A stretch of DNA of 64,000 bases from an uncultured Solirubrobacterales bacterium (GTDB taxonomy: Bacteria > Actinomycetota > Thermoleophilia > Solirubrobacterales > 70-9), in assembly GCA_963807425.1 (NCBI GenBank), contig CAWEBZ010000002.1:27614-91613 (forward strand), read 5' to 3'. The position numbers were made by a program, and so were the translations under genes. The notes below the pieces were generated by a model. It had not been told where the DNA came from and did no database searches. It saw nothing but the letters and a program-made list of their open reading frames with translations. This document shows positions 49,414 to 54,806 of the stretch, one piece after another (within the stretch, counting starts at the first letter, position 1; the number at the start of each line of letters is the position of its first letter).

Positions 49414-50551
49414 CTAGTCAGTCGCGATCAGGTCGCGAGCTGGGTCGATGCGCCAGCGGGCGCCGACCTCGACAAGCTCAGGTGTGAGCTTCCAGCGGTC
49501 GGGGCGCTCCTCGCCCTCGTGCTGGGGGTTGGCCCCCTTCAGGGTCATGCAGCCGGTGTTGTCGCCGATCGCGCGGATCTCCTCGACGTCCTCGTCGCTG
49601 AGCAGATGCTCGGCCGGCAGGGCGGTCAGCTCCGCCCGCTTCTGCTCGATCGAGCGCGCATCCGGCCCGGTCTCCTGGATCAGGGTGGGGACGACGCACT
49701 CGATCGCAGGGTGGGCGAGGTTCCACTGGCAGGCGAGCTGGATCGGGGTCAGGCCGGCGCGCTCGCCGATCGGCAGCACGCGGCTCGAGCTTCTCCAGAC
49801 CTGGCCTCGATCCAGCCGTCGGGACGGAAGGCGCGATGGTCGCCCTTGGCCAGCTCCATCCCGGCGCGGAGGTCGCCCCAGAAGAGGCCGCCGTAATCGA
49901 CCACGCGGGTGATCACCTTGACCCCGTGGCGCTCGGCGGCGTCGAGGCAGAGCTCGCCGGGCCAGGGCTCGAAGGGGTTGAGGATGATCATCGCCCAATC
50001 GATTCGATCGCCGAAGCGCTCCAGGCAGGCGATCAGGTCGAGGGTGAAGCCGTTGGCGGGACCAGGTGCGACGCCGATCCGCGCCGTCAGCCCCGCCTCG
50101 CGCAGCGCCGCCATCCCGTCCCAGACCGCCTCGCTCGAGTAGCCGATGCGATCGGGGTTGTGGAGCAGCAGCAGGTCGAAGCGCTCGGCGCCGATCCGCT
50201 CGAGGCTGCGCTCGGCAGCCATGCGCAGGTAGGCGGCGTAGTCCCCCTCACCCCGCAGGCGCGGGTCGGTGAAGCGGGGAAAGCCACGCGGCCCGTCGCG
50301 CTCGCCCTCGTAGAAGTCGTGGCCGACCGCGCCGACCAGGCAGTAGTCATCGCGGGGAACTCCGGCCAGCGCGCGCCCCAGCGACCCGATCGGCCTCGCC
50401 CTGGCCGTAGGTATCGGCGGTGAGGACGGTGTCGATGCCGTCTCCCGGGCGCAGCAGCGCCTGCTAGGCGCTGCTCCTCGATCGCTTCGCCGAAGTGGAG
50501 GAAGCGACCGCCGCTCCAGGTTCCGATCGCGCTGCGGCCGGGCTCGCGCAC
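49414..50551 (-). pseudogene. Aldo/keto reductase, reading frame broken at four places
   Basis: The AKR sequence can be followed through four successive frame changes, each a one-nucleotide forward shift, near 50461-50464, 50382, 49800-49802 and 49780 ([11 protein letters not shown] | LGRALAG ... PDGWIEA | GLEKLEP | VLPIGERAGLTPIQLACQW). Confidence 0.7.
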
Positions 50552-50567
50552 TCGTATGCCGCGCCGA

Positions 50568-53166
50568 TCAGGCTTCGCCGTCGCCGCTGGGCGGCTCTGC
50601 CGCCCTCGTCCGGCTCGTTGCTCGTCGCCGTCGTCCTTCTTGGCGCCGACGCCGACCTTCTCGGGCTCCGGCTTCGACTTCTTCGGCCGCGGCGGCTTCT
50701 TCGGCTTGACGATCGTCAGGCTGAGCGGACGGTCGTCCTCGTCCCCGGAGGGGTCGCGCTTGACCATCACGGTCGAGCCGGGGGTCATCTGGCCCTGCCG
50801 CAGGACTTCGTCGGCGAGCGGGTCCTCGATGTAGCGCTGGATCGCGCGGCGCAGCGGCCGGGCGCCCATCGATGGGTCCCAGCCCTTGTCGACCAGCAGG
50901 TCCTTGGCCTCGTCGGTCAGCTCCAGCTGCAGCTCGTGCTCGGCGACCTGGACGCGGACCCGGTTGATCATCAGGTCGACGATCTCCTTGACCTCTTCCT
51001 TGGCCAGCTTGTGGAAGACGATCACCTCGTCGATCCGGTTGAGGAACTCGGGCCGGAAGACTTTCTTCAGGTCGCTCATGATCCGGTTCTTCATGTCGCC
51101 GTAGGACATGCCGGTCTCGTCGGCGACGGTGAAGCCGATCGAGGTGTTCTTGGCGATCTCCGAGGCGCCGATGTTCGAGGTCATGATCACGATCGCGTTG
51201 CGGAAGTCGACCGTGCGGCCCTGGGCGTCGGTGAGCCGCCCGTCCTCGAGGATCTGCAGCAGGATGTTGAAGACGTCGGGGTGGGCCTTCTCGATCTCGT
51301 CGAGCAGCAGCACCGAGTAGGGCTTGCGCCGCACGGCCTCGGTCAGCTGGCCGCCCTCGTCGTAGCCGATGTAGCCCGGCGGCGAGCCGACCAGGCGGCT
51401 GACCGCGTGCTTCTCCATGTACTCGGACATGTCGATGCGGATCATCGCCTCCTCGTCGCCGAAGAGGAACTCGGCCAGGGTGCGGGCGAGCTCGGTCTTG
51501 CCGACCCCGGAGGGGCCGAGGAAGATGAACGAGCCGGCCGGGCGCTTGGGATCCTTGATCCCGGCGCGCGAGCGGCGGATCGCCTTGGAGACGGCGGTGA
51601 TCGCGACCTCCTGGCCGATCACCCGCTTGTGCAGCTCCTCCTCCATGCGGATCAGCTTCTGGGTCTCGGCCTCGGTCAGTTTGAAGACCGGGATCCCGGT
51701 CCACATCGAGACGATGTCGGCGATCTCCTCTTCGCCCACGTCGGGCCGCTCGCCGTTCTCGCCCTCGGCCCACTCGTCCTCGAGCTGGCGCTTGCGGGTG
51801 GTCAGCTGGCGCTCGGTGTCGCGCAGGTTGGCCGCTTTCTCGAACTCCTGCGCTTCGATCGCCGCCTCCTTCTCGCGCCGCGTCGTCTCGATTTCCTCCT
51901 CGAGGTCGCGGTAGACCGGCGGCGCGCTCATCGACTTGATCCGCATCCGCGAGGCGGCCTCGTCGATCAGGTCGATCGCCTTGTCGGGCAGGAAGCGGTC
52001 GGAGATGTAGCGGTCGGCGAGCTCGGCGGCGGCGCCCAGCGCGTCGTCGGTGATGTTGACGCGGTGGTGCTGCTCGTAGCGCTCGCGCAGCCCTTCGAGG
52101 ATCTTGACCGTGTCCTCGACCGAGGGCTGGTCGACCTTGATCTGGGCGAAGCGGCGCTCCAGCGCCGAGTCGCGCTCGAGGTACTTGCGGTACTCGTCGA
52201 GCGTCGTGGCGCCGATCGTCTGCAGCTCGCCGCGGGCGAGCGCCGGCTTCAGGATCGAGGCGGCGTCGATCGCGCCCTCGGCGGCGCCGGCGCCGACCAG
52301 GTTGTGGAGCTCGTCGATGAAGAGAATGATGTCGCCGCGCTGGGTGATCTCTTTCATCACCTTCTTGAGGCGCTCCTCGAACTCGCCGCGGTACTTCGAG
52401 CCGGCGACCAGGGCAGCCAGGTCGAGCGTGTAGATCTGCTTGTTCTTGAGCAGCTCGGGGACTTCGCCCTTGTTGATGCGGGCGGCCAGACCCTCGACCA
52501 CGGCGGTCTTGCCGACGCCGGGCTCGCCCAGCAGCACCGGGTTGTTCTTGGTGCGGCGGGAGAGGATCTGCATGATCCGCTCGATCTCGGTCTCGCGACC
52601 GATCACCGGGTCGAGCTTGCCCTCCTCGGCGAGCTTGGTCAGGTTGCGACCGAACTGGTCGAGCAGCTTCGAAGACTTCTTGCCCTCGCCGGAGCCGCCG
52701 CCGCCGGCGACGCGCCCTGACGGCGTCCGCCGGGACCGGAGAGCATCCGGATCACCTCGTTGCGGATCTTGTCCGAGTCGGCGTCGAAGTCGAGCAGGAT
52801 GCGGGCGGCGACGCCCTCGTTCTCACGCACCAGGCCGAGCAGGATGTGCTCGGTGCCGATGTAGTTGTGGCCGAGCGAGAGCGCCTCGCGCAGGGCCAGC
52901 TCGAGCACCTTCTTGGCGCGCGGCGTGAACGGGATCTGGCCGGAGGTGACCTCCTCGCCGGAGCCGACGATCCGCACCACCTGCGAGCGGACGCGCTCGG
53001 TGGTGATGTCGAGCGACTCGAGCACGCGGGCGGCGAGCCCCTCCTCCTCGCGCAGCAGGCCGAGCAGGATGTGCTCGGTGCCGATGTAGTTGTGCTTCAG
53101 CGTGCGCGCCTCTTCCTGCGCCAGGACGACGACTTGACGGGCTCGCTCTGTGAATCGCTCGAACAA
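50568..53166 (-). pseudogene. clpC: ATP-dependent Clp protease ATPase subunit ClpC, frame-disrupted
   Basis: TTG start at 53166. The N-domain repeats are in one frame (stop at 52639). The Walker A/B regions of AAA-1 and AAA-2 are in another frame starting around 52700-52746. That frame has no stop until 50087. An acidic tail ending in the TGA at 50568 is in a third frame. Confidence 0.85.
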
Positions 53167-53293: not shown

Positions 53294-53318
53294 AAAAATC
53301 CGCTCAGAGCGGGTTTTT
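53294..53318 (-). terminator. Bidirectional intrinsic terminator after lysS
   Basis: AAAAATCCGCT-CAG-AGCGGGTTTTT: a GC core stem flanked by A and T tracts, 8 nt after the lysS TAA (53326-53328). Confidence 0.65.
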
Positions 53319-53325
53319 GGCCCGT

Positions 53326-54806
53326 TTAGGAGCGCATCGCCGGGAAGAGCACGACCTCGCGCACGCTCTGGGCGCCGGTCAGCAGCATCACCAGGCGGTC
53401 GATTCCGATGCCGACGCCGCCGGTCGGCGGCATCCCCTGCTCCAGCGCCTCGACGAAATCCTCGTCGTAGGGCTGGGCCTCCTCGTCGCCGCGAGCCAGC
53501 TCCTCGGCCTGCTGCTCGAAGCGGCGGCGCTGCTCGTCGGGGTCGTTGAGCTCGGTGAAGCCGTTGGCGATCTCCATCCCGCCGGCGAAGGCCTCGAAGC
53601 GCTCGACCAGTCCCTCCTCGGAGCGGTGCGACTTGGCGAACGGCGAGAGCTCGACCGGGTAATCGAGGACGAAGGTCGGCTGGATCAGCTCGGGCTCGAC
53701 GTGACTTGGAGAGCAGGCCGTCGACCAGCTTGCCCCAGCCCTCGTTCGGGTCGAGCTCCATCCCCATCGCCGCGGCCAGCGCCTCTCGGGTCGGGTGCTC
53801 GGCGATGTCGATGCCAGACCGCTCGCGAATCGCGTCGCGGAACGTCACCCGCTTCCAGGGCGGCGCGAAGTCGATCGTGACGTCGCCCCGCTCGACCTTG
53901 GTCGTGCCCAGCACCCGCTCGGCGACCTCGGCGACCATCAGTCTCCAGCTTGTGCGCGGTGTCTGCGTAGTCGGAGCAGGCCTCGTACCACTCGAGCATC
54001 GTGAACTCGGGGTTGTGCTTGTGCGAGACACCCTCGTTGCGGAAGTCCTTGCCCAGCTCGTAGACGCGATCGATGCCGCCGACGACGAGCCGCTTGAGGT
54101 AGAGCTCGGTGGCGATCCGCAGGTAGAGGTCGCGGTCGAGCGCGTTGTGGTGGGTGGTGAAGGGTCGCGCCAAGGCGCCGCCGTAGAGCGGCTGCAGCAC
54201 CGGCGTCTCGACCTCGACGAAGCCGCGTTCGTCGAGCCAGCGGCGCACCTCGCTGACCGTGCGGGCCCGCAGCGCGAAGAGGCGGCGGCTCTCCTCGTTG
54301 GCGATCAGGTCGAGCTCGCGATGGCGGTAGCGGGTCTCGACGTCCTCGAGGCCGTGGAACTTGTCGGGCGGCGGCCGCAGGCTCTTGGCGAGCAGGCGCC
54401 AGTGGTCGATCGCCAGCGAGAGCTCACCGCCGCGGCGCGTCGCCAGCGCCGTTCCCTCGACCCCGACGATGTCGCCAAGGTCGAGGTCGACGAGCACCCT
54501 GTAGGCCTCCTCGCCGAGCAGGTCCTCGCGGGCATGGAGCTGGATCTGGCCGCTGGCGTCGCGCAGATCGAGGAAGCAGGCCTTGCCGTGGCCGCGGCGA
54601 CCGACGAGCCGGCCAGCGACGCGGTGGCGCGACTCGGTCTCGATCCCGGGAGCGAGGCCCTCGTGCGCGGCACGCACCTCGCCGATCTCCTCGCGTTCGC
54701 CGAACTCGGGCGGGAACGGATCGATTCCGGCCTCGCGCAGCCGCTCGAGCTTCTCCCGCCGGTCGGCGAGAACGTCGGAGAGTTTCGGCTCTTCGCTCTC
54801 GCCCAT
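53326..54806 (-). pseudogene. lysS: Lysine--tRNA ligase (class II), reading frame broken twice
   Basis: The LysS sequence runs through three frames. Residues up to ...DTAHKLET are in frame 1. [11 protein letters not shown]...LVDGLLSK is in frame 2. [11 protein letters not shown]...[13 protein letters not shown]...LFPAMRS is in frame 3. The junctions lie near 53939 and at 53704. Confidence 0.85.

Follow-up and report, generated by a model that had tools for sequence, protein, structure and literature searches.

The window, a 64,000-nucleotide stretch (C2:27614-91613) of a 15-contig genome that we label G000, carries at least nine frame breaks in three neighboring genes, an aldo/keto reductase gene (akr), clpC and lysS, and our comparison of assembled sequences indicates that these breaks are real in the sequence and not in the organism. 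We put the probability that they are an assembly artefact at about 95% or more, and the probability of the specific mechanism, a consensus blended from several co-occurring congener populations, at a little under 0.9. The akr, clpC and lysS genes of the living populations are most likely intact. Two signatures point to blending: private substitutions are lost across the broken tract, and the extra bases tend to write the alleles of two congeners into a single four-base "codon".

G000 measures 2.76 Mb with 68% GC, is 87% complete and has no Ns in its assembly. The names of related proteins (Thermoleophilaceae, Solirubrobacterales) place it within Thermoleophilia, in a species-rich genus with at least 150 other species. 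The original prediction had proposed looking for contig joins or assembly patches at the tract borders; the tract sits mid-contig, at about 77-82 kb of the 171,252 bp of C2, with neither a contig end nor a run of Ns at its borders. Breaks were detected by alignment against 11-18 congeners and then against five close congeners, and also with a three-periodic codon hidden Markov model (HMM) with frameshift states, trained on G000. Breaks that are terminal or lie close together in pairs can escape the HMM (it recovered five of the nine tract events) and its deletion calls can equal two insertions, so that its genome-wide counts are approximate. The features, in window positions, are as follows.

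49414..50551, minus strand: akr, aldo/keto reductase family; about 377 amino acids (aa) when read in frame; four +1 insertions; its middle piece matches Pfam PF00248; single copy.
49778..49783, minus strand: +1, CCGC (congeners CCG, CGC) or GAGC (GAG/GAC).
49800..49804, minus strand: +1, GCCA/AGGT; a single congener codon matches, hence unscored as two-allele.
50380..50389, minus strand: +1, GTCG (congeners GTC, GTG).
50462..50468, minus strand: +1, GCAG (congeners GAG, CAG, GCG).
50568..53166, minus strand: clpC-type AAA+ ATPase gene (Clp_N, AAA, UVR, AAA_2), sole copy in the assembly, with the strongest depletion of private substitutions.
50598..50620, minus strand: acidic tail of clpC, two +1 (50598; and about 50618, where CAAC replaces the CAC of three close congeners).
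52707..52713, minus strand: -1 or two +1 in a length-variable Gly linker behind the Clp_N domain.
53191..53288, no strand: lysS-clpC intergenic region, extra bases relative to most congeners.
53326..54806, minus strand: lysS, class II lysyl-tRNA synthetase (LysRS), in its canonical greA-lysS-clpC position, two +1.
53701..53704, minus strand: +1, TCAC, against TCG in most congeners or CAC; interpreted as a merge of these two with a shift, negative in the strict test.
53940..53942, minus strand: +1, ACTG (congeners ACG, CTG, ATG).
48000..55000, no strand: zone that loses private substitutions and lies nearer to all congeners, with its minimum at 50.5-53.5 kb.

All coding events fall within 49780-53942. 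Eight are +1 insertions, of which akr has four and the clpC tail and lysS have two each; the remaining one is a break in the Gly linker of clpC. The extra bases of akr (49780, 49802, 50383 and 50463-65) were found in none of 11 congeners, and those of lysS lie at 53704 and 53940-42; in the alignment with 11-18 congeners, no relative has the lysS bases or the one at 50598 either. The tail of clpC is net +2 against all five close congeners, giving two insertions (about 50618 and 50598) that bypass the normal TGA at 50570-50568 and lead to read-through into akr. The linker break, at about 52712-52713, is -1 relative to four close congeners and +2 relative to the fifth, G152. Once the listed events are corrected, the lengths of all three genes are divisible by three. 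Bases were also added between lysS and clpC (+2 at about 53191-53200 and +1 at 53284-88, each against four of the five congeners). Neither the congener alignment nor the codon HMM found a coding break elsewhere in the window, and all five HMM calls in the window lie inside the tract; the other positions at which the frame of most congeners differs fall in intergenic or non-coding DNA or at the ends of genes. The probability that eight breaks share a 4.2-kb part of the 64 kb is 4e-8 under a uniform model. The claim that every frame break of the window clusters in these three genes was thus borne out. The count of eight or more stood for the four akr and two lysS sites and had to be raised to at least nine, since the clpC tail holds two insertions. 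The view that the proteins are otherwise undamaged also held, as the pieces between breaks contain no stop and reach 84-100% identity with the best congener protein, and no large deletions were found in the broken genes. No slippery run or common sequence motif was seen at the break sites (the motif was judged by eye), which makes a basecalling error at methylation motifs unlikely, and an Rfam scan of 49-55 kb gave zero matches.

The first signature concerns substitutions. The tract has 27 private substitutions where 101 were expected, a depletion of about 4-fold (Poisson P=2e-18), and clpC has only 3 compared with 49 and 45 in two clean congeners, while the window outside the tract has 0.79 times as many as these two. 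The tract also lies nearer to every one of the five congeners, at 0.74-0.78 of the distance that separates the congeners from each other, compared with about 0.9-1.2 elsewhere. In four other error tracts of the genome, we counted 10-25 private changes compared with 35-631 in congeners. When insertions and the loss of private substitutions were correlated across bins, the correlation was significant for G000 only. Decay, hypermutation and single-read noise all predict more private changes and a single donor predicts an ordinary number, whereas a majority vote among several lineages predicts fewer. As a 50:50 mix of two populations would leave the private count unreduced, we reason that three or more populations are implied. 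The suggestion of a hypermutated tract is contradicted by these counts, since substitutions are depleted and not raised.

The second signature concerns the inserted bases themselves. In our strict test, a site is positive when two different single-base removals each yield a codon seen in congeners at that position. In the four other tracts, 59% of sites were positive with four references and 69% (29/42) with all references, compared with 10-11% of simulated insertions (p about 1e-14). In the window tract, four of the six testable sites were positive, compared with 21-24% in simulations (p=0.03). Extensions of existing runs were rarer than random (8/81 vs. 52/200, p=0.002), and at the doubled sites C/G pairs were over-represented (73% vs. 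37% of congener differences) and transitions under-represented (20% vs. 38%). Our literature search found no paper specifically on such single-base allele doubling.

The window tract is one of many. The HMM called 728 breaks in G000 (503 insertions and 225 deletions), of which 576 fall in 40 tracts totaling 233 kb; 5-kb bins have a mean of 1.3 breaks with a variance of 9.4, and 67% of bins are break-free. At 1.4 breaks/kb, the window tract ranks among the mildest. The sole valS (C12:430-433.2 kb), with no second copy, is broken into five or more frame pieces and lies in a tract of 39 breaks. Congeners differ greatly in this respect, with 125, 31 and 23 breaks per 80 kb in G013, G157 and G068, all long-contig assemblies with private +1 patches of like kind, compared with 2 and 4 in the clean congeners G152 and G050. 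The HMM found akr-clpC-lysS break-free in 12 of 19 related loci, and greA-lysS-clpC is also broken, at different positions, in ENA contigs from other samples. In exact look-ups, the truncated LysS and ClpC pieces and the intact FtsH and acyl-CoA ligase alike were found on this contig only.

A blended consensus could have formed as follows. Within this species-rich genus, the window is most conserved at akr-clpC-lysS (between-congener distance of 0.08 vs. 0.10-0.20), and reads from co-occurring congeners would have piled onto it during assembly or polishing. Where the populations mostly agree, variants of the host would have been outvoted, consistent with the vanished private substitutions; where alleles tied, both may have been written, consistent with the two-allele insertions, each then an extra base carried by no real molecule. 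In the core of clpC the majority would have won, with few indels; ties would have arisen where the sequence varies more, in akr, lysS, the linker and the tail, and there both alleles would have been written. The excess of G/C pairs and the deficit of transitions would fit a likelihood-based polisher that prices two deletions below a rare substitution. The congeners compared here come from other samples and are proxies for the populations actually mixed. The error tracts of G000 are probably blends of several species and not the organism's own sequence.

Several points weigh against this explanation. The whole inference is read-free, made from assembled sequences alone, and it is the long contigs that suggest that G000 is a long-read metagenome-assembled genome (MAG), the sequencing platform and pipeline being deduced in the same way. 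Two of the six testable sites of the window tract, 49802 and 53704, were negative in the strict two-allele test. The synonymy of the two readings did not discriminate (57% vs. 45-51%); random insertions in GC-rich genes often look synonymous, which makes this test uninformative, and the congener-codon test was used in its place. The bin correlation was non-significant for G013, G157 and G068, whose insertion lists include intergenic noise. Allele-tolerant pattern searches of genome contigs and of metagenome contigs gave no match for the same strain, and no independent assembly with intact alleles was found.

The best-surviving alternative, which we consider unlikely, is low coverage, where the consensus would come from one or a few noisy long reads with raw errors left in place. 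Such a consensus would agree with the patchy distribution of breaks, with some tracts near contig ends, with a genome 87% complete in 15 contigs and with the sites outside the two-allele pattern. However, raw noise would add private substitutions where depletion is seen, and random noise scores only 10-24% in the two-allele test. Nanopore noise is mostly homopolymer length error, whereas here insertions outnumber deletions (503:225) and run extensions are depleted. The original prediction had favored a locally low-quality or mis-polished segment; its general idea of an artefact stands and its "collapsed repeat" comes close in spirit to blended populations, but a low-coverage or error-prone patch does not agree with the roughly 4-fold depletion of private changes.

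Far less probable is a real and recent pseudogenization of akr, clpC and lysS, with a second LysRS covering for lysS, or the inactivation of a duplicate locus. An intact second class II lysS does exist (501 aa, C1:92094-93599, plus strand, directly after prmC, above the TIGR00499 cut-off) and ClpB is intact; moreover, a second locus could be unassembled in an incomplete genome. The second LysRS shares about 53% identity with the canonical copy, and each of the 12 congeners searched has it too; the other families searched gave no match as close. The LysRS duplication is genus-wide and not recent, and the congeners in which the locus is assembled retain both lysS genes. In the 87%-complete G000, we found the locus, akr and clpC once each: the 5.6-kb region matches the genome once, and the remaining matches are clpB and the distant lysS on C1, which leaves the proposed recently inactivated duplicate without a counterpart. 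The absence of stops and large deletions and the substitutions below expectation also speak against decay, and slippage would strike runs, while the single valS is broken by the same pattern. The idea that loss of the canonical lysS would be a biological puzzle is weakened in its premise, as the intact second LysRS makes a weaker case for the lethality of that loss. Were the lesions real, which we regard as highly improbable, the dominant population would be without its canonical lysS, with the second LysRS covering, and also without its sole clpC and its akr, and this would be an actinobacterium living without ClpC.

We give similarly little credence to a real fragment that recombination brought in from a congener and whose heterogeneity then caused errors in assembly. 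The nearest congener does switch from G152 to G013 within clpC, and the nearest relative changes in other error tracts as well, but with a single donor one would expect the private substitutions of that donor, whereas here they are gone, and G013 too has many errors and few private changes. Least probable of all is programmed frameshifting, transcriptional slippage or a localized hypermutator. Three other ENA contigs do have ClpC interrupted at this Gly linker, but in the two for which there is DNA the linker sequences differ and the breaks, 6 and 15 in number, are scattered. The sites lack a slippery run and have no motif in common, the frame is kept in most congeners, efficient read-through of four shifts within a single gene would not be possible, and a hypermutator does not agree with depleted substitutions.

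Comparable artefacts have been described. In its passages on contig indels, a preprint on long-read metagenome assemblers (bioRxiv 10.1101/2025.04.22.649783) describes indels with few or no supporting reads (with none in contigs built by metaFlye and metaMDBG from HiFi data), thousands of genes broken by such unsupported indels, and the merging of subpopulation sequence at conserved loci. The window tract resembles those contigs in its frame-breaking indels and in what is probably subpopulation merging at a conserved locus; unlike our analysis, that work used HiFi reads and read mapping, and the same passages describe concatenated variable regions and not allele doubling or loss of private substitutions. 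The Nanopore-only soil MAGs of Microflora Danica were made with Flye --meta and one round of Medaka (PMC12313526), and that study reports higher microdiversity in some soils and finds that low coding density goes with low coverage, low GC and long homopolymers. G000 is like these MAGs in its long contigs, its terrestrial-type actinobacterial genome and frameshifts that survived polishing, a comparison by type; it departs from their pattern in its 68% GC and in extra bases that avoid runs. Recent bacterial pseudogenes share the frameshifts in otherwise intact-looking coding sequence, whereas G000 has no stops or large deletions, depleted substitutions, a hit in the essential single-copy valS and about 40 tracts.

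We therefore attach no biological significance to the breaks themselves. Gene calls are unreliable in about 8% of the G000 assembly (40 tracts, 233 kb), and blended tracts can distort the completeness scores, average nucleotide identity and gene trees of species representatives. G013 is an example: it is a single 2.67-Mb contig scored as 49% complete with few private substitutions, and is probably a blended consensus that is close to complete and scored too low. The loss of private substitutions and the two-allele insertions can together flag such tracts without reads.

Some further observations were made along the way. Breaks recur at the Gly linker behind Clp_N in other long contigs, where they give rise to the Clp_N-only products of 173-194 aa in protein databases; the linker is probably a length-polymorphic hotspot for artefacts. 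In C6:24001-44000, the first 7.4 kb match G152 near 593-601 kb at 88-90% and the 15-20 kb part matches it near 1306-1311 kb at 95-97%, well above the usual 83-91%, so that a chimeric join or a blended segment is possible there. The error tract at C12:518001-537000 differs by 11-12% from G103, G002 and G050, compared with 15% from G152, the usual nearest relative in the window. Within the window, candidate breaks at 29.6, 37.9-38.0 and 43.2 kb proved on direct inspection to be non-coding or gene ends. The stretch at 37860-38050 is conserved, with small indels among congeners and without an Rfam match, and the long open reading frame at 37160-38626, open in the window, has stops in that frame in all five congeners, suggesting that it is probably non-coding.

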